Source: Polypterus senegalus (taxonomy: Eukaryota). From it: a DNA stretch of 64,000 bases. Under the pieces are notes generated by a model. That model did no database searches, was not told the origin of the DNA, and worked only from the letters and a program-made list of their open reading frames with translations. Within the stretch, counting starts at the first letter, position 1, and each line of letters starts with the position of its first letter. This document shows positions 6,092-63,182 of this stretch, piece by piece. The translations under genes and the position numbers were made by a program. The stretch lies in assembly GCF_016835505.1 (NCBI RefSeq), contig NC_053155.1, forward strand, positions 74,788,088 through 74,852,087. The letters run 5' to 3'.

Positions 6092-6234
6092 CCTGCGGTG
6101 GGCTGGCGCCCTTCCCAGGATTTGTTTCCTGCCTTGCGCCCTGTGTTGCCTGCGATTGGCTCCAGCAGACCCCCGTGACCCTGCATTTATTATATAGCGG
6201 GTTGGATAATGGATGGATGGATGGAAATCGTCCT
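6092..6234 (+). repeat. SINE 3'-tail fragment (same family as 2172-2448)
   Basis: ggtgggctggcgccc…gattggctccagcagacccccgtgaccctg…ggatggatggatgg. Confidence 0.7.
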
Positions 6235-9188: not shown

Positions 9189-10798
9189 TACAGGTGCTGG
9201 TCATAAAATTAGAATATCATGAAAACGTTGATTTAATTCAGTAATTCCATTCAAAAAGTGAAACTTGTATATTAGATTCATTCATTACACACAGACTGAT
9301 GTATTTCAAATGTTTATTTCTTTTAATTTTGATGATTATCACTGACAACAAATGAAAGTCCCAAATTCAGTATCTCAGAAAATTAGAATATTGTGAAAAG
9401 GTTCAATATTGAAGACACCTGGTGCCACACTCTAATCAGCTAATTAACTCAAAACACCTGCAAAAGCCTTTAAATGGTCTCTAAGTCTAGTTCTGTAGGC
9501 TACACAATCATGGGGAAGACTGCTGACTTGACAGTTGTCCAAAAGACGACCATTGACACCTTGCACAAGGAGGGCAAGACACAAAAGGTCATTGCTAAAG
9601 AGGCTGGCTGTTCACAGAGCTCTGTGTCCAAGCACATTAATAGAGAGATGAAGGGATGGACAAGATGTCATAGAAAAAAGTGTACAAGCAATAGGGATAA
9701 CCGCACCCTGGAGAGGATTGTGAAACAAAACCCATTCAAAACTGTGGGGGAGATTCACAAAGAGTGGACTGCAGCTGGAGTCAGTGCTTCAAGAACCACC
9801 ACGCACAGACGTATGCAAGACATGGGTTTCAGCTGTTGCATTTCTTGTGTCAAGCCACTCTTGAACAAGAGACAGCGTCAGAAGCGTCTAAAGACAACAA
9901 GGACTGGACTGCTTCTGAGTGGTCCAAAGATATGTTCTCTGATGAAAGTAAATTTTGCATTTCCTTTGGAAATCAAAGTCCCAGAGTCTGGAGGAAGAGA
10001 GGAGAGGCACAGAATCCATGTTGCTTGAGGTCCAGTGTAAAGTTTCCACAGTCAGTGATGGTTTGGGGTGCCATGTCATCTGCTGGTGTTGGTCCATTGT
10101 GTTTTCTGAGGTCCAAGGTCAACGCAGCCATCTACCAGGAAGTTTTAGAGCACTTCATGCTTCCTGCTGCTGACAAACTTTATGGAGATGCAGATTTCAT
10201 TTTCCAACAGGACCTGGCACTGCACACAGTGCCAAAGCTACCAGTACCTGGTTTAAGGACCATGGTATCCCTGTTCTTGATTGGCCAGCAAACTCGCCTG
10301 ATCTTAACCCCATAGAAAATCTATGGGGTATTGTGAAGAGGAAGATGTGCAATACGCCAGACCCAACAATTCAGAAGAGCTGAAGGCCACTATCAGAGCA
10401 ACATGGGCTCTCATAACACCTGAGCAGTGCCACAGACTGATCGACTCCATGCCACGCCGCATTGCTGCAGTAATCCAGGCCAAAGGAGACCCAACTAAAT
10501 ATTGAGTGCTCTACAAGCTCATACTATTCATGTTCATACCTTTCAGTTGGCCAACATTTCTAAAAATCCTATTTTTGCATTGGTCTTAATTGATACTCTA
10601 ATTTTCTGAGATACTGAATTTGGGACTTTCATTAGTTGTCAGTTATAATCATCAAAATTAAAAGAAATAAACATTTGAAATACTTCAGTCTGTGTGTAAT
10701 GAATGAATCTAATATACAAGTTTCACTTTTTGAATGGAATTACTGAAATAAATCAACTTTGTCATGATATTCTAATTTTATGACCAGCACCTGTCTAT
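9189..10798 (+). mobile_element. Tc1/mariner (Tc1-like) DNA transposon, ~1.6 kb, long IR/DR-type TIRs
   Basis: TIRs of ~230 bp (9189-9430 vs reverse complement of 10560-10798, both starting acaggtgctggtcataaaattagaatatc). Each TIR has an outer and an inner copy of the aaattagaatat(c/t)(a/g)tgaaaa motif. Internal Tc1 transposase reading frames. Confidence 0.85.
9513..10505 (+). pseudogene. Tc1-like DDE transposase, split over three frames by at least two frameshifts
   Basis: ORFs 9474-10028, 9764-10315 and 10323-10505 together give a paired-like HTH N-terminus (MGKTADLTVVQKTTIDTLHKEGKTQKVIAKEAGCSQSSVSKH…), a DDE core (…FSDESKFCISFGNQSPRVWRKRGEA…VMVWGAMSSAGVGPL…FQQD…) and a C-terminus (…[49 protein letters not shown]). 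Confidence 0.8.
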
Positions 10799-14349: not shown

Positions 14350-15150
14350 ATGATGAGTTGGGATCAGCTGTACTCTTTGCTTGGGGGTGTAAACAAACAC
14401 TCAACCAGCTTGGGGAAGATATGGCTCTCAGTCCTCTTTATTTTTCGCATTATGATCCTGGTGGTAGCAGTTGAAAGCGTCTGGGGGGATGAGCAGTCGG
14501 ACTTCACATGCAACACTTTACAACCAGGGTGCAAGAATGTCTGCTATGATCATTACTTTCCCATCTCTCATATTCGTCTGTGGTGCCTTCAGCTCATCTT
14601 TGTGTCTACTCCGGCTCTCCTAGTAGCTATGCATGCGGCCCACAGCAAGAAGGAACAGAAGAAGGACATCATTAAGACTATGGGAGATAAGGCTGATGAG
14701 GACCTAGAGATGCTCAAGAAAAAAAGGCTTCCAATTACAGGCTCATTATGGTGGACTTACACTGTAAGCCTCTTTTTCAGGCTGGCATTTGAAGGGGCTT
14801 TCATCTATGTTTTTTACTTGTTGTACAGTGGATTCCAGATGCCCCGCCTGGTAAAGTGTGATGCATGGCCATGTCCTAATGTGGTGGATTGCTTCATTTC
14901 ACGACCCACAGAGAAAACCGTGTTTACCATTTTCATGATTAGTGCCGCTGCACTCTGCATGGTCCTCAATGTGGCAGAAATGTGCTATTTGGTGGTTAAA
15001 GCCCTAGTACGCTGTTGCAAGTGCTCCCAGCAGGGGGTCAGTGCTCACCAGCTGCCCAATGGTATGGAGTACCAGCAGAACAAGGAGAAGGGGCAGCTGC
15101 TTTCTGAGGCCTCTTCTAGCAAAGACAGCTCCATGGACAAGTTTGCATAG
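14350..15150 (+). CDS. gjb2: Connexin (gap junction beta protein), single coding exon, 266 aa. The true start is probably the second Met at 14353
   Basis: Intact ORF with near-identity to the GJB2/GJB6 consensus: [77 protein letters not shown]…[14 protein letters not shown]…GSLWWTYT…[31 protein letters not shown]. Three extracellular-loop Cys per loop and four TM segments. A polypyrimidine tract plus AG acceptor sits just upstream (14320-14333), typical of a 5'UTR intron. The symbol is a clade assignment (gjb2 vs gjb6 unresolved). Confidence 0.9.
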
Positions 15151-18496: not shown

Positions 18497-18606
18497 TATC
18501 CATCCATTATCCAACCCGCTATATCCAAACTACAGGGTCATGGGGGTCTGCTGGAGCCAATCCCAGCCAACACAGGGCGCAAAGCAGGAAACAAATCCCG
18601 GTGTTC
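18497..18606 (-). repeat. SINE 3'-tail fragment, reverse orientation
   Basis: ccatccattatccaacccgctatat…cagggtcatgggggtctgctggagccaatcc is the reverse complement of the SINE tail. Confidence 0.7.
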
Positions 18607-25928: not shown

Positions 25929-27083
25929 AAGCTGCCAACAAAGAATGATATTTTTGATGCAGAATCGGACAGTGATGGCCCTTGTGATAGCAGAGACACA
26001 TCTCCCCGAATAAAGAAGAAGAAAAACAAGCTCAAAGAGCTGGATACTACTCCAGGTAGTCCAAAGAAAGATAAGAAATCAAAAGTTGACAAAATATGTG
26101 AGCCAGAGAAATCTAAAAGTGAGCAACAAGATAAGTCCCCTTCAGTCTCTCCTGTCAATGAGAAGACTTCAAAAACAAAGAAAAGAACTATTGAAGCGGA
26201 CACTGAGCATAAAGGGACGAAAAAACAAAAAAAACATGATGCAAAAGAAAATGGAAAATCTAGAAAAGAATTGACTGATGCAAAGAAAAAACAAAAGATA
26301 TCTAGAGAAAGTAAAATTAATGATACCGCACAACCACAGCAAGAGACATCAGATAAGGATGAGGGTTCTGCAGATGAACTCTCGCATGATGAGCAGAGCA
26401 TAGTAAGCACAGAAGCTACTGACATCTCTGTAGATGAACAAGCTCAAGAACCGACCTCGTCTTTTGATTCAACTATGAAAGCTGATGCTGCTGTCTGTCT
26501 AGAGCAAAGTCCTGTGGATCAGAATGCAAGGCAAAAGAAAACGAAAAAGCATGCTTCTGAACAGAGGGTAAAGCTACAGGATATAAAAGAACTTATTCTT
26601 GAAAAAAAAGGAGTACGTTCAGAGAGCAGTATGAGTAAAAGGGAGTCGACCCATTTAAAACTACGAAATATACTAGCAGCAAGTAGGTCTACTGAGTCAA
26701 GTGAGAAAACTCAAAAATCATCAAAAACAGGAGCTGAGGAGTCTGAACAGTCTTCAGATTCAAGTGAAGGACTTGGTGGTGTCAAAAGAAAAGCAAAAAG
26801 CAGAGTTTTGGATTCATCACCAGAACTGGAATCTAGGGGAAAGAGTAAAGAGGAAGAACATGCTGATAAAATCGGTTCTAGTTCAGGTACACCTTCAAAA
26901 AGCAAAAGCATTTCTGCACCATCTTCCCAAGAGGAAAGTGAAAAGGAACAGTTCCAATCTCCAAGTCTGTTTGAGAAATTTTTGCTGAACTGTGAAGCAA
27001 AAGACCGAATTCCTAAAAAGCAAAGTTTGGGCACTGCAACAACGAATGTGGAAGACAAAACTGAGAACAAAACAACTGGAAAG
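25929..27083 (+). CDS. mphosph8: mpp8 exon 3: large K/E/S-rich low-complexity exon, 385 codons
   Basis: Acceptor ttaattag then KLPTKNDIFDAESDSDGPCDSRDTSPRIKKKKNKLKE… open to …NKTTGK then gtgtgc. Human has LNNDIFEANSDSDQQSETKEDTSPKKKKKKL…. Confidence 0.8.
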
Positions 27084-29535
27084 GTGTGCATACTATTTTA
27101 ATTAATTATTCTCTCTCTCTCTCTGTGTATATCTGTGTGTATCTGTCTTCGAGTCCCAGTGTCTCTGCAACAGCAGTGAACTTCTTGGCAAGTCTTTCAG
27201 CTGTATGTATGGCTATACAGGGCTCCAGACTAATAAAAAGATTACTTGGGAGCATTCAGCAGTAATTACTTTTTTTTTAGTCATCAAAGTATACAAAAAA
27301 ATGTAATTCATGTTAACAGAATGTTTGCACTTTAAGTGAAATACCTCCAGTAAACGTAATACTTGCAATGTCATTATTATAAATTCTGTTCATTTTAAGT
27401 AGCAAGATTTGTGGAATGTATTTTGTGGACAGTCGTTCCTTGCATACAATCTTATTTAAATTTTGTTTACAGATCTTTAAATTTCTCTTTAGGGGAACAC
27501 TTTGCAATTACACAATCACAAGCACTTTTATACTTTTGGCAGTCTCTGGTTTTACCTTTTTTGAAATGATTAATCCTATTCAAAGGGTCTTTGTACTTGC
27601 ATCTTCCTGATTGGGTATACAACTAAAGTTGCAATACATCACATGTGTAACTTTATCATTCCTAAGCTAAGTAAATTCCTGATGCTATTTACTTCTAAAG
27701 TGCTGTTCAGGCCTGTTGAACAATGAATTGCTCAAATTAGATGCGTATTCAGATTCCATGTTGTCAATAATTGCATTAAGCTTGCCATGTTAAATCTGAG
27801 GATCAATTACAGTAGACAAAGAGCCATCAGACGAAGTATCGAAGCCTAATTTTATACTTCACTATTATTAGATCATCATCTAGCATGTTAAAGGTTTTCA
27901 TTAGGGATGATCTGGTCAGGTTTTTTTTTTTTTTTTAGGCCAGTGCCAATTTCATGTTACTGAATTGGCTAATTCTGACAGTTTTTTTTTTTTTTGTTGT
28001 TGTCACAAACCCTATAAAACACTTTCTGCACTAAGCTTCTGCATATCCAGGCTCATAGAATCCTTATCTTCTATATTAAAGTGTTAACTTCAGTGGTGTT
28101 ATAATTTAAACTATTATTATTTTAACTGTAGATTTTATTATTAGAAAAATTAAATTCTGCAGGCTCATTGCTCAGTGACCATAAAATACTATAACAAATA
28201 AAATTTCCTTTAAATATGTACAGAAATATTTATCCATAATGCATATGCCATAAAAGAAAATGCTATTCTGTTTAATTTTTTCTGTAATATACCTGTCTGA
28301 AACACAGCTTAATTAAAAAAAAAAAAAAAGTTTTCACCATTTCTCTAACAAAACAAATGTATGTATATCCTCACACAGTTGATTAAGCAGCAATTTAAAA
28401 TTCTTCTTTATCTTTTTCTAATTGAAAATGTAAGGTTCTATATTTAACACAAGCTTGCTGTCCAAACTCTGTTGCACAGGGTGACTTCACCAATTCCCTT
28501 TTCTTTAACATAAAGGCTGATATAACCATCTTCTCTTGCTTGCGCTTTCTCTCTGATAAAGTATGACTTGACTTGCTTCTCTTTGTTTACACTACAGATG
28601 TTTGCTTTAACAAAAGAAGACTGTACTGACTCACCTACCCTAATACTTCACATAAAGGAGCACTGCAACCTAATTACTGTAAAGCTTAGGAAAGCAGGGT
28701 CTCAAAAGATTGCTTTTTGTGATCTGCCGATCACCGATCGAGTATCTGGAGTAAAAGGTGTTAGAGATATCATTAAATAATGGCAGATAAAAATTTGATC
28801 ACACATCAACTCAAAAAATTAAAATGTGTTTCAGTCACTAATGCTGACTGAACTTAAAACTTTGAAAATTCATAGTTTTTTTTTTTTTTTTATTTTGGTT
28901 ACAGTCTCCTTCTATGAAAATTTTGTGCCTAATACCATTGACTTCATCTATGTCGTGGGATATTATTTTTATATAAAATTCATTTGTTGTCCCGAGTGTG
29001 ATCTCATTAGCTGTTGACAGCATAGCTTTCCACTCTTGTATCTTCTCAGTAAAATGTTTTCTCTAAAGGTGGTGAAAGTGCTTTTAGATAGAAGGCTGTA
29101 TCCTGATTCAAGATAATTGATTAGCAAACGAAACCCTTTCCTTCAGCTGCGGTGATCAACAACATCTTTGTATCATTTCACTATCTTTGAACATAAGAAA
29201 TGTCACAAATGAGAAGAGATCTGATTACCAGTTTTTACAGTTTCTGCTTGATAGTAAATGGTAGGTTATTTGGAATGTCTGACTTTGAAAGAAATTTGGT
29301 ATTTCAGTGGAGTGTTTCTTTAACACATTCTCAAACCATACATTGTTATGCTTAAGCTCTTAATGGAAGTTCATAAAACATCATTTAATCCTTAACATTC
29401 CTAATGATTCCTAATGATCTGTTCACCTTTCCACCCAGAGATATTTAAAAATTATTTAATACTTTTCATTGTTTGGTAAATATTGTTACTTGTGGCTTTT
29501 TTCTTACAATTAATATGCATTTTTTCCCCTCTTAG

Positions 29536-31460: not shown

Positions 31461-32195
31461 CAGCATTACTTTCTGTACCACGCATCAAACTCAGTTGTAT
31501 GTGAGCTTGAGCGTCCTCTCGTAGTGCTCCGCTCCTCAACTCTGGAATTCTCTTCCCTCTCATATCCGTCAACTGGACTCAATAACACATTTTTAAACTG
31601 CCTTCAAAACGTATCTTTTCAAACTGGCATACCAATTATTAATTTAACATTGTTACTGCCTGTTATCTTTGTATGTTTGCTACTACCTCTATACCTTATT
31701 ACTATTTGATTTTATTGTCCTCTTTGTTTTTATATTTTACTAATGTTATTTAATTTCATTGTAAGGTGACCTTGAGTGTTAAAGGTACCTGTTAAATGTT
31801 TTATTATTAATGCTATTCAAAGTCTGTACAATTTCTGCTGCTACTCGGATTCATTGTCCAATCTTATCAGCTGTACAATAACTCATGAAGAAGACCTCTC
31901 GACTTTCTTGATTGCCTCTACTTGCCCTTTTCTTAAAGAGACCAAGCCACTACCTTTTTTTGGAGAAGACCATGACCTCAGATTTGGAGGTACTAGTTGG
32001 CATCCATACAACGTCTTACTCTGCTACAAATTGTTCGCACCAGAAATTTTCTGGTCATGGACAATATGATTTCTTAGCAGTAATATCATTGTTGCTATGT
32101 ATACTAAACACCATCTTGCATCATCAAGTATGTACAGTGGGTACGGAAAGTATTCAGACCCCCTTCAATTTTTCACTCTTTTTCACTGTAAGGTC

Positions 32196-33986
32196 CATTC
32201 CTTACAGCTTACTTACAAAAATTAAGCAGGTTTCATTTTGAAATACTACGCGTAACGGTCAACAACGTCCGCCATATTGAACTTTCTTATTCATGGCCCC
32301 ATCTTCACGAAATTTGGTACGTGGCTTCCCTGCGCTAACGAAACCAATGTACATACTTATTTGGTGGTATGGCGCCACTGTCAGCCGCCATATTGAACTT
32401 TCCAACGTCACTAATTCTCCTACTTCCCGTGTAGGTAAAAGGCTGAAATTTGGTACTTATTTCAGTGGTATGATGCCACTGTCGGCCGCCACATTGAACT
32501 TTTAACGGAAACCGATGCCCGTACTTATTTCGTTGGTATGACACCACTGTCGGCTGCCATATTGAACTTTCCAACGTCACTAATTCTCCAACTTCTTGTG
32601 GATGTAGAAGGCTGAAATTTGGCAGGCTCATTCCTTACAGCTTACTTATGACAGTTAAGCAGGTTTCATTTCGAAATTCTACGTGTAATGGTCATAACGG
32701 TCAACAACGTACACCATGTTGAACTTTCTTATTTATGGCCCCATCTTCTCGAAATTTGGTAGGCGGCTTCCCTGAGCTAACCGAAACTAATGACGTACTT
32801 GTTTCGGTGGTATGATGCCACTGTCGGCCGCCATATTGAACTTTTCAATAGTCTTTGTTACTTATGGGCCCATCTTCAAGAAATTTGGTACACGGGTTCC
32901 CAACGCTAACTGAATCCTACTTGCGTACATATATACGTCCATAGCCTGCAGCTCGGTCACCGTGAGGCGGCATTGGGTCCCCCAACCCAACGCCTCCCAT
33001 GTTGTTGGCTGCCTGCCTATATAAGACCGTTCGTCGCTCCGGTCTCTACATTCCCTTCCTTGCTTCGCCATGGGATTCATGTCTCCCTACTGATAACTAC
33101 AGCCTTTTTGTTTAATCCACGGCTTCTCTGCTGTTTTATTGTTTGTTTATTACAATTATAGTTATTGTGTAGATATTTTACACTTACTTTACATTGCTCA
33201 GGTACCCATCTCCTTTATCATTCCAACCCCCATTACCATGTCTATCGAGATGATCATATTGCACGGCCATATCAGGCTCGCGCTTGATATCCGGAGGAAC
33301 ATTGTGTCTTATGTATTGAATGACTGGGACAGGTTCAAGGTGTGGACTGATGACAGTACAGGAGATAATTATACTACACAGGAGCACTATAAGAGTGAAA
33401 TGCTTAAGCCCTTCACCTATGGTTCTGCATGTGAGTTGATGGCTGCCACTGAATTGTTCGGTTGTTGCTTTCAAGTGTACCAAAATGGCCAAATATTTTA
33501 CACCTTTCGACAACCGCCAATGCCTCTTAAACATCTTAGATTCACAGGTGACGATTTCAGAAGTGGACACTTTTTGATGTTTATGAATGTTTAAACTCTT
33601 CAAAAGCTGGATGTGATTTTATCGATGAAACCGGTTGTGTGCTTACAATGCTTGACAGATGCCAAATGTCACTTCAACACAACAAATCCTGCAAATACTG
33701 TCATAATTGAAACAAACCATGAAACTCGAGCTGCCTCCAAGCTGTGAGATTTGAGACAAGATTACTGTTCACATGGCCAACTGTAAGTTGCATGCTCAAG
33801 AGTAAGCTCAGCGCAAAGCTTGGTCATGTTACAACTGGAGGGCCGAACTGACAACATGGTATACAAAGAGATCCTTAACAAATAATTATTGGCATATTTT
33901 CCCTTAGTTTTAAAAGGTTTAATTTTCTTCTTAATAAAAATTTTAATGCAGTACTTCGCTGTTGCGAAGCGCGGGTATTTTGCTAG
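32196..33986 (+). mobile_element. Helitron-like composite non-autonomous element, copy 1 (5'-truncated)
   Basis: Left edge abuts a truncated Tc1 TIR (cagtgggtacggaaagtattcagaccccc, 32135-32195). Contains tandem ~150-bp sub-repeats (32290-32930), TATA (cctatataagacc ~33013), a leader, the OTU-like ORF, and the 3' end …cttcgctgttgcgaagcgcgggtattttgCTAG|T. Confidence 0.45.
33238..33594 (+). CDS. OTU-like cysteine-protease-fold ORF (118 aa from the ATG); the catalytic Cys motif is absent
   Basis: MSIEMIILHGHIRLALDIRRNIVSYVLNDWDRFKVWTDDSTGDNYTTQEHYKSEMLKPFTYGSACELMAATELFGCCFQVYQNGQIFYTFRQPPMPLKHLRFTGDDFRSGHFLMF follows the OTU topology (…H..lR..vv.Y…F..F… / Y…M…g.wGg.iEl.A..e….I.vy / …HY…). The position of DGNCLF reads HGHIRL. 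Confidence 0.4.
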   Translation: MSIEMIILHGHIRLALDIRRNIVSYVLNDWDRFKVWTDDSTGDNYTTQEHYKSEMLKPFTYGSACELMAATELFGCCFQVYQNGQIFYTFRQPPMPLKHLRFTGDDFRSGHFLMFMNV

Positions 33987-34129
33987 TGTATATATAAATG
34001 TGGATATATACTGAGTGATCAACACATTTTGAGCCTGATGTATTATGAGAAACATAGAAAAATCTTTGTTTTTTTTATCTTCTGTAACTGACTGACTTTT
34101 TCCATTGTTTGTATGGTGTGCTGTGTGAG

Positions 34130-34330
34130 GTAGCTGCTCAGACTAGAGAAAATATGGTATTTACACTGAGCAAAGGTCTGGTGAATAGGATGGGTAAGGC
34201 ATATTTAGCACCTCATGGCACCCTTTGCAACCTGTGCACTGTAAGCATTGACATGAGGTAGGTAGAAGATGAGTCATAGATTTCTTGGCTGCTTTTCCCT
34301 TTATTAACTACCATTAGACCAAGCAACTCG
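34130..34330 (+). repeat. Unclassified ~200-bp repeat, copy a
   Basis: …cagactagagaaaatatggtatttacactgagcaaaggtctggtgaata…gcttttccctttattaactac… is shared with 36555-36740. Confidence 0.4.
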
Positions 34331-34454
34331 GCACAATATTTAGCAGATTTTGTGAATTTTTAGCTCCGTGTTGACTTGGTTCAGAAACAGAAGTACATAC
34401 TAGAAATCAAAAATAGTAAAAAAAAAATAATAAATAAATTAACCTATTTACTTG

Positions 34455-35641
34455 TCTATACTAATAAAAGGCAAAGCCCTCACTAACTCATTCATCACTA
34501 ATTCTCCAACTTCCCATGTAGGTAGAAGGCTGAAATTTGTCAGGCTCATTCCTTACAGGTTACTTACAAAAGTTAAGCAGGTTTCATTTCGAAATTCTAC
34601 GCGTAACGGTCATAACTGAATACTACTTGCGTACATGTATACATCCATAGCCTGCAGCTCGGTTGCGGTGTGAGGCGACGTTATGTCCCCCATCCCCACG
34701 CCTCCCACGTAGTTGGCTGCCTGCCTATATTGCGTCCCCCATCCCCACGCCTCCCATGTAATTGGCTGCCTGCCCATATAAGACTGTCCGTCGCTCCGGT
34801 CTCTTCATTCCCATCCTTGCTTCGCCATGGTATTCATGTCTCCCTGCTGATAACTGCAGCCTTTTTATTTAATCCACGGCTTCTCCGCTGTTTTATTGTT
34901 TGTTTATTACAATTATAGTTATTGTGTAGGTATTTTAGACTTAGTTTACTGTTCAGATACCCATTTCCTTTACCGTTCCAACCGTACCCCCATTAACATG
35001 TCTATCGAGGTGATCACCATCGATCAAAGAACTGTCACTTACTGAAACTCAAACCAATTATGACAGCAGCAATCCAAGCTGTGAGAAAACAGTAAAAAGG
35101 AGGCGTGTCAGACGTCGTGGTACATTTTCTGATGCAACTAGACGGAAACAACTTCGTGACGCTGCCTCCAAATACTCGCAGAACAATCCAAGTTAATAGA
35201 CACGCTGTCGCTAAATACTTGCAGGCATATCCACAAGTTCATAGAGACGCTGTCGCTAAATACTTGCAGGCAGATCCACAAGTTCCTAGACACGCAGCTG
35301 CTAAATATCTGCAGGCAAGTTCACAAGTTAATACTGGGAATGCCTGTTAAACATCTTAGATTCACGAGTAGCGATTTGGGTAGTGAACACTTCGATGAAT
35401 GAAACCTGTTATCTTTACAACGGTTGACAAACACAGAATGCAACTTGAACACAACATGTCCTCCAAATACGAACCTGATTGAAAGAAATGATAATCAAAT
35501 CCTTGATGACAGCAACACTCATAAGTGACAAAACAATTACATTAACAATCATGTTACGTTATTTTTAAAATGTTTCCTTTTCTTTTTCATAACTTCTTTA
35601 ACACACTACTTCTCTGCTGCGAAGCGTGGGTATTTTGCTAG
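34455..35641 (+). mobile_element. Helitron-like composite non-autonomous element, copy 2 (complete ends)
   Basis: 5' TCtatactaataaaaggcaaagccctcac…(tgac/tcat)…cactaattctccaacttccc…ggcaggctcattccttacag…gcgtaacggtcataactg. TATA (cccatataagactgtcc ~34785), a leader, three 42-bp tandem repeats (35190-35340), and 3' …ctgctgcgaagcgtgggtattttgCTAG|T. Confidence 0.45.
35190..35340 (+). repeat. 3 x 42-bp tandem repeat inside copy 2; translates as (N/H)R(H/D)AVAKYLQA(Y/D)PQV. A divergent version lies in copy 4
   Basis: atccacaagttcatagagacgctgtcgctaaatacttgcaggca repeated. ORF 35105-35350 is a by-product of the repeat. Confidence 0.6.
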
Positions 35642-36297: not shown

Positions 36298-36427
36298 TGT
36301 GGTGGGCTGGTGCCCTGCCCGGGGTTTGTTTCTTGCCTTGAGCCCTGTGTTGGCTGGGATTGTCTCCAGCAAACCCCCGTGACCCTGTAGTTAGGATATA
36401 GCGGGTTGGATAATGGATGGATGGATA
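36298..36427 (+). repeat. SINE 3'-tail fragment
   Basis: ggtgggctggtgccctgccc…gtctccagcaaacccccgtgaccctg…ggatggatggatag. Confidence 0.7.
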
Positions 36428-36554: not shown

Positions 36555-36740
36555 TTATTATCTCTTTTCATTGCTCAGACTGGAGAAGATATGGTAATTA
36601 CATGGAACCAAGGTCTGGTGAATATGTAGCTCCTGACGGCCTCCTTTGCAATTTGCAGTGTAAGCACTGACATGAAGTAAGAGGAAGATAGTTCAGCTTT
36701 CTTGGTTGCTTTTCCCTTTATTAACTACAGCAAAGATCAA
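36555..36740 (+). repeat. Unclassified ~200-bp repeat, copy b
   Basis: See 34130-34330. Confidence 0.4.
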
Positions 36741-53900: not shown

Positions 53901-55274
53901 TTAGGGTGATAAGCTCTTGTTGTCATGGACACACTCTGGCCACAGCTTCATCCAGTAGGCATTGAGGGTTTCCTTTTTCATCTCCTTAAGAGCAGCTTGG
54001 ATGACTGACAGGCACGTAGTGATTGTAAAGTTATGCCAGTAACCCTTCAATGTAAAATTCTCGTCCGTGTCCATTGCATCCACAAGGTATTGGGGAGAAA
54101 TCCGGGTATAAAGAGCCTTGAAGGCACAGATTATGCCTTGATCCATAGGTTGGATGAGGGAGGTGGTGTTGGCAGGGAGGAACTCGGTCTGAACTCCCTC
54201 GTAATACAAATCCAAAGAGTGGCTGCCAGCATTATCCATAATAAGCAACACCTTGAAGTCCATGCCTAAGTCGTGGAGGTATTCCTTGGCTTGACAGATG
54301 AAGCACTGGTGAAACCAGTTTGAAGCAAGGATTTTGGTAATCCAGACTTTAGGGTTGTGCATCCAGAAGACAAGCAGCAGGTTTTTATTTTTGTTTTTAA
54401 GGGCCCTAGGGTTTGCGGATTTGTAGATGAGGCCAGGTTTCATCCTGTAACCAGCAGCATTGCCACACATAATAAATGTCACTCTGTCCTTCTGTACCTT
54501 AAACCCTGGAGCTTTGACTTCGTCCTTCATAATGCAAGTTCTGGACGGCATCTTCTTCCAGAACAAGTCGGTCTCATCCATTTTAAAAACTTGTTGAGGC
54601 TTGTATCCCTTCTCCTCTATGATGTGCGTAAATGTCTCGGAGTACTTCTCTGCAGCTGCTTTGTCAGCAGATGCTGCCTGTCCATGTAGAGAGAAGCTTT
54701 TAATATTAAATCGTTTCTGAAAACGATCAAACCATCCCTTACTGGCTTGAAAATGTTCAGGCTCCGGTGCTGTTGATGAACCTGGTTGTGGTTCTTTGGT
54801 ACCTTCTACATTGTCTACTGTAGTGAACTTCTGGTACAGTTTTCGTGCTTTCTCACGGTTGATGTTACCGTCCAAGGGGATGTTCTTCCTGCAGTCGGTG
54901 ATCCACAAAGCCAAGGCAGATTCCATTCTGACGATATTTTTATTCCTTACGGTCGTTACCTTTTTGGCACTATCACAGAAACTTACAGTACTCCGGATCG
55001 CTGCCTTGTTCATCTTTATGTAGCGTACGATGCTTTCATTAATGCCATAGTGGCGCGCTACTGCAGCATAACTTTTTAGTTCCCGGAGCAAATCCAGTAG
55101 TTCAGCCTTCTCCTGGAGTGTTTTAAACTTCTTCTGGTGCTTAGGCTCAGTGCCAGAAGCCTTAGAAGGTGCAGGGCGTTTCAGTGACATCTTGTGCATT
55201 TTAAAAATAAAAAAATGGAAAACACGAGGCCGCGGTCGAAGACGCATCACAGGGCAGCAGTCAATCAGCAGCAA
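53901..55274 (-). CDS. Tigger/pogo transposase (CENP-B-type HTH plus DDE_1), 457-aa uninterrupted ORF
   Basis: …LKRPAPSKASGTEPKHQKKFKTLQEKAELLDLLRELKSYAAVARHYGINESIVRYIK… then …ALALWITDCRKNIPLDGNINREKARKLYQKF… then …KPQQVFKMDETDLFWKKMPSRT…TFIMCGNAAGY…HNPKVWITKILASNWFHQCFICQAKEYL…DFKVLLIMDNAGSH…ANTTSLIQPMDQGII…. Confidence 0.8.
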   Translation of the reverse strand: MLLIDCCPVMRLRPRPRVFHFFIFKMHKMSLKRPAPSKASGTEPKHQKKFKTLQEKAELLDLLRELKSYAAVARHYGINESIVRYIKMNKAAIRSTVSFCDSAKKVTTVRNKNIVRMESALALWITDCRKNIPLDGNINREKARKLYQKFTTVDNVEGTKEPQPGSSTAPEPEHFQASKGWFDRFQKRFNIKSFSLHGQAASADKAAAEKYSETFTHIIEEKGYKPQQVFKMDETDLFWKKMPSRTCIMKDEVKAPGFKVQKDRVTFIMCGNAAGYRMKPGLIYKSANPRALKNKNKNLLLVFWMHNPKVWITKILASNWFHQCFICQAKEYLHDLGMDFKVLLIMDNAGSHSLDLYYEGVQTEFLPANTTSLIQPMDQGIICAFKALYTRISPQYLVDAMDTDENFTLKGYWHNFTITTCLSVIQAALKEMKKETLNAYWMKLWPECVHDNKSLSP

Positions 55275-58308: not shown

Positions 58309-59047
58309 GTAAGGAGTTAAGAGTAATATGTATCTCTTCCAATATATTGATGTCTGTCTGTCGCTCAAAAACTTTGCAGCTTAATCTTACTCTCACCCAA
58401 GAGCTTTTGCTATGACATTCAAAATATAACCCATGAATTGGTCATGCTTGGCAACAAAGTTCAGCTTTGGGTTCTTCTCACAGCAAGTAGAGGTGTGGTG
58501 GTACGCTGTAGCTCACAGACAGCCAGAGGCTGCATGGGCACAGAAATGGCAAGCATTAGTAAAGTAAATTGCAGAGACCAAATGATCGCTTGCACCACAA
58601 AAGCTGCTGCATGTGCATGTGGCGCTCGCAGTCAAGCACAGGCGGACTGATAACTGAAAGTTGTACACTCCAACTGCAAAAAAAAAAGTGCACATGTCAA
58701 GCAAGATGTCAACGACACAACACAAGCATTGTGGGTGCAAGTCAGAAAAAGTTGTAGCAACATCTGCTACTACTGAACAACAATGAAGCAGTCACCATGG
58801 GTGCTGTGTTTGGTGAGAGGTAGTTCTTCAAGGACTGTAGGTCTGAAAGTTTCTAGTACTTTACATACTACCTGCAGTTTTTTTTTTTGTTTTTGTTTTT
58901 AAAATTAAAGAACTTTCTCTAATGTTTTACCCTTTATGGATGTTTTTTTTTTTTTTTTTCTTTCTTTCTCCCAGTTACTATTATTTTAATATAAGGGGTT
59001 ATGCTCCATGGACATTGCCTAAATTGCTGCTAGTGTAATTTTATGAA

Positions 59048-60133
59048 CTAGCAAAATACCCGCGCTTTGCAGCGGAGAAGAAGTGTGTTAAAGAAGTTAT
59101 GAAAAAGAAAAGGAAACATTTTAAAAATAATGTAACATTTGCTTTCTATTTGTTTGCATAAACACAGTCCTTCACCAGCAATTATTTAACGTTAGCTCAG
59201 ACCCGGCACTTAAAAGTTTCTGTTGCACTTTTGCTGAGTTTGCGCCAAACACTATTCTATCTCTGACCATTTCATCTTCGTTTGCATAAGCACAGTCCTT
59301 CACCAGCAATTTTAACTCGGTTACAAAGTGATCAAAAGTGTTGTTTATATCCTGCGTCCTCTCAGTAAACTTGTATCTCGCAAATATCGCATTCGTCTTA
59401 GGCATGACAAACGCCATCGGCAGTGTGTCTATAAACTTACGGTTTACACCGTGCTTTGTTTCTGCAGTAGCTGCACTTATGAATATGCTTGTATGCGTCA
59501 CTCGCTTCATATTCTTTTGCTGCCTTCTCAATTGTGTAATGCGTTTTTTGTTCAGAGCTCTTCCTTGTTCTCTGCGTACTGCGTTCATAGTCAGTTCACG
59601 TGAGCTACTCAGAGTACATGCATAGAAGGTTTCTGAGCTGTGCTTGTGCTATCTTGTGCGATGTCCACGGCTTTATTTTATGTTAGCTAAGACCCGGCAC
59701 TTAAGTTTCTCTCACACTTTCGCTGAGTTTGTGCCAAACACTACCCTGACCATCTCATCTTCGTTTGTATAAGCACAGTCCTTCACCCGCGAATATTTAG
59801 CGGCAGAGTGTTTCTACTGGATTGCCGCTGATGGACAGACTTATATGGGCAGGAACTCAATTACGTGGGAGTCGTTGGTAAGGTGGACGCAATTCTGCCT
59901 CACATGGCGACTGAGCTGCAGGCTAAGGCCATATACAGTATGTGTACATAAGTAGGTTCCAGTTATGACCGTTGCGTGTAGAATTTCGAAATGAAACCTG
60001 CCTAACTTTTTTAAGTAAGCTGTAAGGAATGAGCCTGCCAAATTTCAGCCTTCTACCTACACGGGAAGTTGGAGAATTAGTGGTGAGTCAGTCAGTCAGT
60101 CAGTCAGTGAGGGCTTTGCCTTTTATTAGTATA
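59048..60133 (-). mobile_element. Helitron-like composite non-autonomous element, copy 3 (minus orientation)
   Basis: Read on the minus strand: 5' TCtatactaataaaaggcaaagccctcac(tgac)5…cactaattctccaacttcccgtgtaggtagaaggctgaaatttggcaggctcattccttacag…, then TATA (cccatataagtctgtcc), the Gag-like ORF, and 3' …ccgctgcaaagcgcgggtattttgCTAG|T at 59048-59051. Confidence 0.45.
59172..59588 (-). CDS. Retrotransposon Gag-like ORF fragment (138 aa) carried inside copy 3
   Basis: …ARYKFTERTQDINNTFDHFVTELKLLVKDCAYANEDEMVRDRIVFGANSAKVQQKLLSAGSELTLNNC matches the Retrotrans_gag core pattern (F…Q…E…F…L.L…C.Y…EE.iRDrlV.G…+LL….LTL). Confidence 0.45.
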   Translation of the reverse strand: MNAVRREQGRALNKKRITQLRRQQKNMKRVTHTSIFISAATAETKHGVNRKFIDTLPMAFVMPKTNAIFARYKFTERTQDINNTFDHFVTELKLLVKDCAYANEDEMVRDRIVFGANSAKVQQKLLSAGSELTLNNCW

Positions 60134-60284
60134 GATTAGCAGAATACCCGCGCTTCGCAACGGAGAAGTAGTGTGTTAAAGAAGTTATGAAAAAGAAAAG
60201 GAAAAATTTTAATAATAACGTAATATAATTGTTTTGTCTTTGATATGAGTGTTATATATATATGTATATATATAAGTTGGCGTC

Positions 60285-60456
60285 AGAATATATAAAGTCA
60301 TTCCCGAATATATAAAGTCAAAACTTGAATATATAAAGTCACGGTCGGAATATATATAAAGTCAAAACTTGAATATATAAAGTCAGCGCTGGAATATATA
60401 AAGTCAAAATCGAAGTATATAAACTCATTCCTGAATATATAAAGTCAAAATATATT
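60285..60456 (+). repeat. Iteron-like array, forward arm: ~8 x gaatatataaagtca plus a 6-nt spacer (aaactt alternating with gcgctg-type)
   Basis: Read directly from the sequence. The unit is ~21 bp and the dimer ~42 bp. Confidence 0.8.
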
Positions 60457-60553
60457 GATTGAAACGACTCTGAACTGAACTAAGTGAACAAAAACGTATT
60501 CAGAAAAATAAATTAAAAAACGCTGTTCGGTTAATGTTTTGAAAATGATGCAT

Positions 60554-60664
60554 GTGCCCTGCCCAGGATTGGTTCCTGCTTTGCGCCCAGTGTTGGCTGG
60601 GATTGGTTCCAGCAGACCCCCGTGACCCTGTGGTCGGATTCAACGTGTTGGGAAATGGATGGAT
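60554..60664 (+). repeat. SINE 3'-tail fragment inserted between the two palindrome arms
   Basis: gtgccctgcccaggattggttcc…ggttccagcagacccccgtgaccctg…ggaaatggatggat. Confidence 0.7.
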
Positions 60665-60669
60665 ATTCC

Positions 60670-61048
60670 AGAGCTGACTTTATATATTCCGACGCTGACT
60701 TTATATATTGAAATTTTGACTTTATATATTGTAGCGCTTACTTTATAGCCTGTATTCCAACGCTGACTTTATATATTCAAGATTTGACTTTATAGATTCC
60801 AGCGCTGAACTTTATATATTCTGACGCTGACTTTATATATTTAAGTTTTGACTTTATATATTCCAGCGCTTACTTTATATATTCCGAAATATTCCAACGC
60901 CGTCTTTATATACTCAGGTTTTGACTTTATATATTCAGAAACAAGTATTGACTTTATATATACCGACACTGACTTTATATATTCAAGTTTTGACTTTATT
61001 TAATCCGACAGTGACTTTATATAATCAAGTTTTGACTTTCTATAGTTA
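60670..61048 (-). repeat. Iteron-like array, reverse arm: ~18 x tgactttatatattc (reverse complement of the forward unit)
   Basis: Read directly from the sequence. Together with 60285-60456 it forms a long imperfect palindrome. Confidence 0.8.
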
Positions 61049-61770
61049 AATGTAGTCATCATTGCATACATTTTTCTTCACCATAGAAATTTAAAGACTA
61101 AATTCAACTTCCATTCCTACCAAAGATATTTCTGGTGACTAAATAGAACCTACTTGTATCCAAATTCGAGCTATTGAGCTGTCGCCTGCCTGCCTGAATA
61201 AGTCCCCCTCGCTTCGCTCTTACTTTTTACCGTTCATTTAATCATGGCTAGTGGCGGAAAAATTATAAAATGGAAGGAGGATTACACTGAGTATGGCTTT
61301 ACCAAAACAATTATTGATGGCGAATCGATTATTCATAAAGCTTCAATTGGTGATCTGTTTTTCTGTGTTAACCTCATATTTTTTCATACTTCTTCTCAAA
61401 CCAAGGGGGTGCGAGGTTAAAATGAATCGGGAAGCGCTGATCAATGTAATCGGTGTACCAGGAAATCATGCATTGAGAGAAGTTCCCCTTTGCTTGGAAT
61501 GCAAAGTGTGATTAAATACATGATTTTTTTAACGTGTTATGGAGCACATGCATTGAAGCTTCTAGGCTGTGCTTGTGCTAAGAAAAGGAAACATTTTAAA
61601 AATAACGTAACACGATTGTCAATGTAACCTTTTGTAAGTAGTGCCTGGAGGATTCAGTGTGGAGAAACTGTAGAGACAGCGTGTGTATTAACTTGTGGAT
61701 TTTTCTGTGAGTATTTGGTGGCAGCGTCACAAAGGCGCTTCTGTAACACTGCGTACGTTAGCTGCGGAGC

Positions 61771-61983
61771 TCAGCTCAGAGCGAAATGAGGTGAATGGGA
61801 GAGGAGATGATGACGTGACTCCCCACCTGCCTTAACTGTCAATCCCCACAAACACAGTCTCTCGGAATTTGCATAAGCACAGCCCTTTACCTTCAATTTT
61901 AACTTAGTTACAAAGTGATCAAAACTCTCGTTTATATCCTGCGTCCTCTCATTAAACTTGTATCCCGCATTACCCGTGGGCAT
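61771..61983 (-). pseudogene. Gag-like ORF fragment in copy 4, paralogous to 59172-59588
   Basis: MPTGNAGYKFNERTQDINESFDHFVTKLKLKVKGCAYANSERLCLWGL… matches the same Gag core, then degenerates. Confidence 0.4.
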
Positions 61984-63182
61984 GACAAACGCCAGCGGTA
62001 GCCTGTCTATGAGCTTAATTAAACTTTAGGTTTACACCTTGCTTTGTTTCCGAAGTAGCAGCACTCATGAATATGGTTGTACTGTATATGTCACTCGCTT
62101 GCTTCTCATTGTTTCGCTGCCTTCCTAATTATATAATGTATGTTTTCTTCAGCGGTTTTTGGAGCTCTTCCTGGTTTTCTACGTACTGCGTGATTACGTG
62201 GGAGGCGTGATGATGTCACACGAAACTCTGCCCCCACGGCTTTCGAGCTTAACTCCATTACAGTAAATGGAGAAAAATAGCTTCCAGTTATGACCCTTAC
62301 GCGTAGAATTTTTAAATGAAACCTGCCCAATTTTTGTAAGTAAGCTGTAAGGAATGAGCCTGCCAAATTTCAGCCTTCTACCCACACGGGAACTCGGAGA
62401 ATTACTGATGAGTCAGTGAGTCAGTCAGTGAGTGAGTCAGTGAGGGCTTTGCCTTTTATTAGTATAGATCACAGTTAAATAATTCTTGTGAACAGTCGCG
62501 CAGCAAAAATTAAAAAATGCTAGACAGTAGGATAGTTTCGTATCTGTCAGACTTGCTTAATGTAATATATGGTTGTGGAGAGCCAGAGCCTATTCTCCAC
62601 ATGGGCAGCCTCCAGGCATGCAATTTCAAGCCCACTTTCCAACCCGAATTACACAGACTATAAATAAATTTACAATGTGAAATAATCACTTTTCTCTAAA
62701 ATAACAATTAATAGGAAGTAATAAAAATGATAGGTAATTCATAACAAAACTGCACAACATTAATAAAAAAAATTATATTTTAACAAATGCGCAAAGAATT
62801 TAACAGTTAATGGATTACAGATGTCTCTTTATTTGCATGGCTTTGTTTCTTGTGAATTATTACTAAATCCAGTTTATTACCAGATTGTTAACATAAACTT
62901 TGTGATCTGTTGGAATTTAAAGTTAAATATAAATGTAATTTCTTTTTCACAATTTAACACATTTGCTTGAATCCAGCTGATATTTTTATTTGTTTTCAGC
63001 TTAATGTTGACTGCATTTTTATCAGTTAATGTTTGCTGGTTTTCTAGGTGGTTCTAAATGATTTTCTGACTGGATCTGTGAACTGATCCCACAAACCCTT
63101 ATAAAACATTGAGAACAAGAATGTACTGTACTATAGTTATTCATTTTTTTTTTCTTTCCATCATTTGTACCTTTTCCTGCAG

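Follow-up and report, generated by a model that had tools for sequence, protein, structure and literature searches.

A base-precise head-to-tail junction between two unlike Helitron elements in the bichir Polypterus senegalus

Helitrons that lie directly end to end have been described in maize and in bats. Adjacent head-to-tail Helitrons with different content in maize were interpreted as consecutive insertions and not as tandem repeats (Du et al. 2008, PMC2267711), and maize helitrons reportedly insert preferentially near or inside other helitrons, which gives rise to multiple termini and pseudo termini (PMC3288121). End-abutting Helitron insertions supported by empty-site evidence are known from Myotis (Grabundzija et al. 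2016, PMC4778049), and tandem junctions of Helibat elements in Myotis lucifugus are attributed to Pritham & Feschotte 2007 in the citation given by PMC2267711. Here, we describe a new instance of this phenomenon in a basal ray-finned fish. The junction, termed D|C after the two elements that it joins, lies in a stretch of 64,000 nucleotides of P. senegalus contig NC_053155.1, which we refer to as the window.

A Helitron family with four copies in the window

Our comparisons rest on four copies of one family (n = 4), all inside this one 64-kb window (A to D; Table 1). Their termini were set by aligning the copies together with 40 nt of flank, with A and B serving as outside comparators. The 5' homology of B, C, and D, the three copies with an intact 5' end, starts exactly at TCTATAC, i.e., with the TC of a Helitron 5' terminus. 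The 3' homology of all four copies stops at a CTRR terminus, which is CTAA in D and CTAG in the other three, with T as the following base in 4 of 4 cases. An A precedes D and, by way of the CTAA, also precedes C, with B as the exception. A search of the window with the 3'-end motif, allowing up to three mismatches, returned four sites (33970-33986 and 35625-35641 on the plus strand, 59048-59064 and 60136-60152 on the minus strand) where 0.04 were expected, and the 5'-end motif had three exact matches (34455 +, 60135 -, and 62468 -) where 0.36 were expected. One additional 5'-end match with three mismatches (27224-27240) was taken as chance.

Table 1. Positions of the Helitron copies, their parts, and neighboring features in the window
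Feature	Position	Strand	Description
Copy A	~32187-33986	+	3' end CTAG at 33986, then T; lacks the 5' terminus, with rearrangement and duplication in the 5' region
OTU ORF in copy A	33238-33594	+	decayed OTU cysteine-protease ORF
Copy B	34455-35641	+	complete, 1187 bp, TC...CTAG then T; 5' flank base G, not A
Copy C (copy 3 of the original prediction)	59048-60135	-	complete non-autonomous Helitron, 1088 bp; TC at 60135-60134, CTAG at 59051-59048, host T at 59047
138-aa ORF in copy C	59172-59588	-	from a captured LTR-retrotransposon gag fragment
Junction CTAA|TC	60135-60136	-	head-to-tail; terminal A of D plus first T of C give A|T, the dinucleotide that Helitrons canonically target
Copy D (copy 4 of the original prediction)	60136-62468	-	composite non-autonomous Helitron, 2333 bp; starts TCTATACTAATAAAAGG at 62468 after host A at 62469, ends GGGTATTCTGCTAA at 60136
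Terminal 3' block of D	60136-60253	-	homologous to B 1060-1186 with a 12-bp deletion; includes palindrome region and CTAA
Foldback in D	60286-61044		inverted arrays of 21-bp units (60286-60450, 60663-61044) around dispersed-repeat core 60569-60664
Internal truncated 3' block of D	61580-61627	-	corresponds to B 1083-1130, 96% identical
Tc1-like DNA transposon	9190-10794		202-bp terminal inverted repeats (97% complementary), frameshifted transposase (HTH_Tnp_Tc3_2)
Connexin ORF	14350-15150	+	single-exon; exact match to XP_039599923.1 / MBN3294538.1 (gap junction beta-2-like)
Ser/Glu/Lys-rich ORF	26271-27101	+	long; looks like a large coding exon
pogo/Tigger-type transposase ORF	53901-55274	-	uninterrupted, 457 aa; DDE_1, HTH_Tnp_Tc5, CENP-B_N; ~5 kb from the junction

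Target-site duplications were absent (length 0) for every unit as well as for the D+C pair, and terminal inverted repeats were likewise absent: the 5' end and the reverse-complemented 3' end matched at 6-7 of 30 positions, as by chance. A subterminal palindrome (CTTCGC-tgtt-GCGAAG) is perfect only in A, where it lies 17 nt from the end; B and D retain five of its six pairs, and C carries an alternative CCGC..GCGG stem instead. Fold energies ranged from -2 to -6.5 kcal/mol, with z-scores no different from those of shuffles. We had considered hairpin strength as a discriminator of the D terminator and rejected it, since D equals B at 5/6 pairs. No RepHel ORF was found in the window. The four copies in the window also have conserved ends and variable captured interiors, and matches in bichir proteins point to a dispersed multi-copy family, as expected of Helitrons. 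By the hallmarks of TC...CTAG/CTAA ends, A/T flanks, no inverted repeats, no target-site duplication, and variable interiors, the assignment of the family to canonical Helitrons of the Helitron1 type is sound, and the original prediction that the elements are Helitron-like holds.

Two other classes were ruled out. Helentrons (Helitron2) do not fit, since their short asymmetric inverted repeats are absent and the flanks are A...T rather than T/T. A tandem of LTR retrotransposons is incompatible with the unrelated 5' and 3' blocks of each unit and with the lack of a target-site duplication, which would be 4-6 bp long. In agreement with the original argument against LTR elements, the units share no LTR-sized segment: the ~280-bp 5' block and the ~100-bp 3' block are unrelated to each other, the junction is formed by a 3' block followed by a 5' block, and self-matches within the units are internal only.

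A Helitron1 element from the same species, Heli1Xen1-b, likewise has canonical TC...CTAG ends (PMC12001565). Its RTS hairpin is CCCGTTA...TAACGGG and its LTS TATATAAA, whereas the family studied here carries CTTCGC-TGTT-GCGAAG and TCTATACTAATAAAAGG; by these termini, the two are different families. Scans of sequence collections that do not include the bichir genome yielded one chance bacterial match to the 3'-end pattern among metagenome contigs and 0 matches to the 5'-end pattern among genome contigs.

The whole family has only its outermost ~280 bp (5') and ~100 bp (3') in common, and the interiors differ. C and D have a gag fragment in common (at ~61868-62191 in D) that is absent from A and B. 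The gag similarity is confined to a captured piece of 100-400 bp with no RT or integrase alongside. Homologues of the C ORF are retrotransposon gag genes of other organisms, situated upstream of RT, RNase H, and integrase, and no Helitron ends of this family were found at the loci of these homologues.

The interior of the A/B type has a different content. Of the OTU ORF of copy A, no more than the first ~15 codons remain in B (34998-35045). Homologues of the copy A ORF are bona fide OTU domains, and one of them (P0128) combines OTU with Helitron_like_N (E = 8.7e-39); on this basis, the A/B type appears to have been derived by deletion from an OTU-RepHel Helitron. Bichir proteins encoded on four further contigs of chromosome size contain the OTU piece at ~90% identity, and among the best 150 cluster representatives, 34 match it at 79% identity or higher. 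By these matches, the family is dispersed in the bichir genome. In seven further OTU homologues (P0111, P0133, P0137, P0148, P0163, P0165, and P0079), with ~31-41% identity to the copy A ORF, an N-terminal OTU is combined with a C-terminal portion of the P87 domain (PF07267) of the baculovirus capsid protein, an architecture without relation to the junction.

Five P. senegalus protein entries (P0016-P0019 and P0008, i.e., AGAP3, FRYL, PDGFD, CWC27, and the HVC33 "protein, partial") have host-gene domains fused to Helitron-borne ORF stretches, whose OTU or gag-like sequences are 71-92% identical to the ORFs of the family. These fusion proteins are probably annotation chimeras, or possibly exonised Helitron fragments. 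As a practical point for annotation, several bichir protein entries appear to hold exons from the Helitron OTU remnant.

Further repeats occur within and around the copies. In the 5' part of copy A (window 32135-32900), the subterminal segment of the Helitron 5' end is duplicated at a period of ~440 bp and alternates with a ~270-bp segment that is absent from B. Copy A also abuts a short fragment resembling a Tc1-like terminal inverted repeat (32135-32186). Copy B follows it in the same orientation after a spacer of 468 bp (33987-34454), part of which is 75% identical to 36572-36728, 2.5 kb downstream, and thus represents another unclassified repeat. Just inside the 5' end, an (ACTG/ACTC)n microsatellite (60090-60115, 62405-62444, and 34480-34490) comprises ~5 units in C and ~9 in D and is nearly absent from B.

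Among the neighboring features, the Tc1-like transposon coincides with a gap of 474 Ns in a second bichir assembly (GCA_016984135.1). A protein search with the putative exon at 26271-27101 returned no bichir protein, the only match being a sturgeon chromodomain protein at 41% identity. From the connexin-cluster neighborhood, we presume that this exon may be MPHOSPH8-like. The Helitron copies may be intronic to it or lie downstream of it. Exact protein look-ups with the Tigger-like ORF and other ORFs of the window gave no match, and the searches yielded no annotated protein within 10 kb of the junction.

The junction and the two elements that it joins

Copies C and D are oriented head to tail on the minus strand, and the last base of D (60136) touches the first base of C (60135) with 0 bases between them. 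More specifically, D ends in ...GCGCGGGTATTCTGCTAA at 60136 and C starts with TCTATACTAATAAAAGG at 60135, the minus-strand letters from 60152 to 60119 being CGCGGGTATTCTGCTAA|TCTATACTAATAAAAGG. The end alignments with flanks agree with the original claim that the 3' end of copy 4 abuts the 5' end of copy 3 with no base between. The window contains no Ns. The D 3' terminus and the C 5' terminus have no common sequence, so that a repeat-mediated assembly collapse would not yield this join. The second assembly (scaffold JAAWVN010026910.1 of GCA_016984135.1) agrees with the window at 99.9% over 20 kb, a compared part that lies ~45 kb from the junction, and the paralogous locus L008, ~370 kb away, holds no copy of the family. 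The end alignments confirm that the D|C junction in the assembly is base-precise and real.

Copy 4 of the original prediction is, however, not a simple unit. D is composite, in that a truncated 3' block lies in its interior, and the part of it that demonstrably abuts C is the terminal block of ~118 bp (60253-60136). Just before the conserved 3' block, this terminal block has B-type sequence that is absent from C. The internal 3' block is missing its last 57 nt, including the palindrome and CTAG, and thereby constitutes a pseudo 3' terminus; at its breakpoint (61580), it is joined directly to sequence homologous to the internal 485-524 piece of C. Between the two 3' blocks lies ~1.3 kb of other DNA, the foldback included. 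One reading of this arrangement is that D goes back to an older head-to-tail pair whose junction was spanned by a deletion, in which case the locus would be a three-element array.

The foldback in D is built from a 21-bp unit (GAATATATAAAGTCAAAACTT), whose variants alternate to give a super-period of 41-42 bp. Its core belongs to a dispersed repeat of ~100 bp (GGATTGGCTCCAGCAGACCCCCGTGACCCTG...ATGGATGGAT), whose copies at 2382-2446, 6108-6218, 18497-18594 (-), 36310-36422, and 60569-60664 are 81-91% identical to one another. No Rfam match was obtained anywhere in the window, this core included.

The two abutting elements are not alike. D (2333 bp) is 2.1-fold longer than C (1088 bp), and only positions 1-276, 485-524, 552-855, and 984-1087 of C have a counterpart in D, i.e., 67% of C and 32% of D are alignable. 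The shared parts are also non-collinear, with the 485-524 piece placed in another order in D. Ungapped identity between C and D is 86% at the 5' end, 86% in the gag fragment, and 88.5% at the 3' end. We had considered a difference in divergence between ends and interior as a sign that the elements diverged before insertion, and this difference vanished once gaps were left out (86%, 86%, and 88.5%). The B-C, B-D, and C-D distances are alike, with C and D no closer to each other than either is to B, 25 kb away. When the first 280 nt of B, C, and D were aligned with one another, D had 31 private changes, B 16, and C 12 (C versus D, p = 0.005). The excess in D falls mainly in columns 190-290, where B and C are alike and D is unlike them; within the first 190 well-aligned columns, the counts for D and C (9 versus 4) do not differ significantly (p = 0.27).

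By these comparisons, C and D are different elements, and the end that abuts C is not a copy of C's own end. A tandem of one element should consist of collinear units that are each other's closest relatives, and C and D are neither, although the precise 3'|5' junction without host bases (CTAA|TC at 60136|60135) is present. The original prediction had explained the tandem by skipped rolling-circle termination. Given that skipped termination on one element or circle predicts two identical copies, this explanation finds no support in units that are unlike, non-collinear, 86-88% identical, and no closer to each other than to B.

Possible origins of the junction

The junction probably formed when one Helitron was integrated by the transposase exactly at the terminus of another member of the family, yielding C and D in head-to-tail arrangement. 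The mode of insertion and the order in which the elements arrived are inferences, as is the place of the join, which may have been this locus or an earlier donor locus from which the pair then moved as a unit. Helitrons integrate at A|T and favor AT-rich surroundings, above all 3' of the site (PMC4778049). Since D ends in CTAA, its last A and the next T form the canonical A|T target, whichever element came first. With D resident, C would have entered at ...CTAA|Ttcataaaatt; with C resident, D would have entered at ...ctgtgA|TCtatactaat. Had D ended in the usual CTAG, one of the two orders would require a rare G|T insertion, a problem that was raised for the maize pair (PMC2267711). The larger number of private changes in the ends of D, together with its nested foldback, weakly suggests that D was resident first and C came second.

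Random insertion cannot be the source of a zero-distance join in a 3.7-Gb genome, and an explanation by insertion therefore needs a preference for Helitron ends, of a kind that has been reported from other species. The four copies in the window form two same-orientation pairs with gaps of 0 and 468 bp, a pattern reproduced in ~0.2% of trials of a rough simulation with four random points in 64 kb. The Helraiser transposon shows no local hopping (PMC4778049). Given this pair pattern and a Helraiser without local hopping, a preference for Helitron ends or for their AT-rich surroundings would be the economical inference. What counts against insertion at an element's end is that C and D, through the gag fragment, are structurally the most similar pair of the four, as would also be expected after an old tandem duplication.

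A stronger version of this idea is that the family actively targets the termini of resident members, for example, through transposase bound at the LTS or RTS, which we regard as rather unlikely. If it were true, copies ending in CTAA would offer a ready A|T landing site, and mixed head-to-tail arrays would accumulate well beyond chance expectation, to be fused later into new composite elements through deletion or bypass of the terminator. D would then be a collapsed older X|Y pair, making the locus X-Y-C, and the A-B pair would be a product of the same preference.

It is unlikely, though conceivable, that the D|C pair, or the D-terminal block with C, was formed elsewhere and arrived as one composite transposon. 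Such a transposon would start at the 5' TC of D, bypass the CTAA of D with its imperfect palindrome, and stop at the CTAG of C. The outer flanks of the pair are canonical, with A before the TC of D, T after the CTAG of C, and no target-site duplication. The D palindrome is imperfect (5/6), and the predicted DNA fold is no better than that of shuffles. Bypass of a weakened 3' end with transduction of downstream sequence has been obtained experimentally with Helraiser and seen in Myotis (PMC4778049), and D already has a pseudo 3' terminus, which is the signature of an earlier bypass or nesting (PMC3288121). However, copy B has an equal 5/6 palindrome and is a normal single unit, and composite mobilization accounts for the movement of the pair and not for the first origin of the adjacency. 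Read-through could have mobilized the D|C pair as a unit after its formation. We find it less probable still that C and D are a rolling-circle tandem dimer, generated by replication past the terminator as a concatemer from a circular intermediate and then decayed and rearranged in place. The precise junction is built like the LTS-RTS joint found in Helitron circles (PMC4778049, PMC5876387), such an origin has been proposed for perfect head-to-tail junctions in Myotis according to the citation in PMC2267711, the gag fragment sets C and D apart from A and B, and C-D divergence is nearly uniform at 12-14% over the three shared segments. A dimer is nevertheless hard to reconcile with the 2.1-fold difference in length, the non-collinearity, the 33% of C and 68% of D that have no partner, the unequal branch lengths, the B-type sequence just upstream of the conserved 3' block in the terminal block of D, and a distance between C and D that is no smaller than that of either to B, 25 kb away. 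In addition, it would need many large rearrangements after a duplication only ~6-7% old per copy.

Integration of a permuted circle was ruled out, since copy C is complete and has its own canonical 3' flank. An assembly artefact, in which the assembler joined two Helitron copies from different places, appears extremely improbable. The region is repeat-rich, and the gap of the second assembly at another repeat of the window indicates that repeats are hard to assemble in the bichir genome. Misjoins, however, arise via shared sequence, of which the D 3' and C 5' termini have none, and a false join falling exactly on both cleavage sites with 0 extra or missing bases is very unlikely. The window is also free of Ns, and the second assembly agrees at 99.9% over the 20 kb compared, with the junction lying outside this part.

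Comparison with Helitron pairs in maize and bats

The D|C junction provides a clear case of Helitrons placed end to end in a vertebrate (Polypteriformes), with little import beyond annotation. It shows that base precision alone does not make a junction evidence for rolling-circle concatemers, and the CTAA variant does away with the "missing host A" argument brought forward in favor of tandem replication. If many mixed junctions exist genome-wide, they would provide a useful natural data set on the formation of composite elements and new 3' ends.

The Helibat elements of Myotis differ from the bichir family in host and are unrelated in sequence, the bichir being a non-teleost ray-finned fish. 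The homo-tandem (rolling-circle) interpretation given to some of the Myotis cases is a misfit for the two unlike bichir units. The multi-terminus helitrons of maize, which arose by nesting or adjacent insertion (PMC3288121), are comparable to copy D, which likewise has an internal truncated 3' block without CTAG in addition to a complete terminal one. In comparison with them, D is a single example, whose candidate origins are deletion across an older junction, bypass, and template switch.

The bichir pair resembles the adjacent Helitrons of maize (PMC2267711) in that the elements likewise have the same orientation, the 3' terminus of one is followed directly by the TC of the next, and the captured fragments are unlike. 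The maize pair is backed by presence/absence polymorphism data, whereas the bichir pair is known from one assembly. The two also differ at the junction itself: the maize junction is CTAG|TC, with a non-canonical G/T for one order of insertion, whereas the bichir junction is CTAA|TC, which provides a canonical A|T for either.
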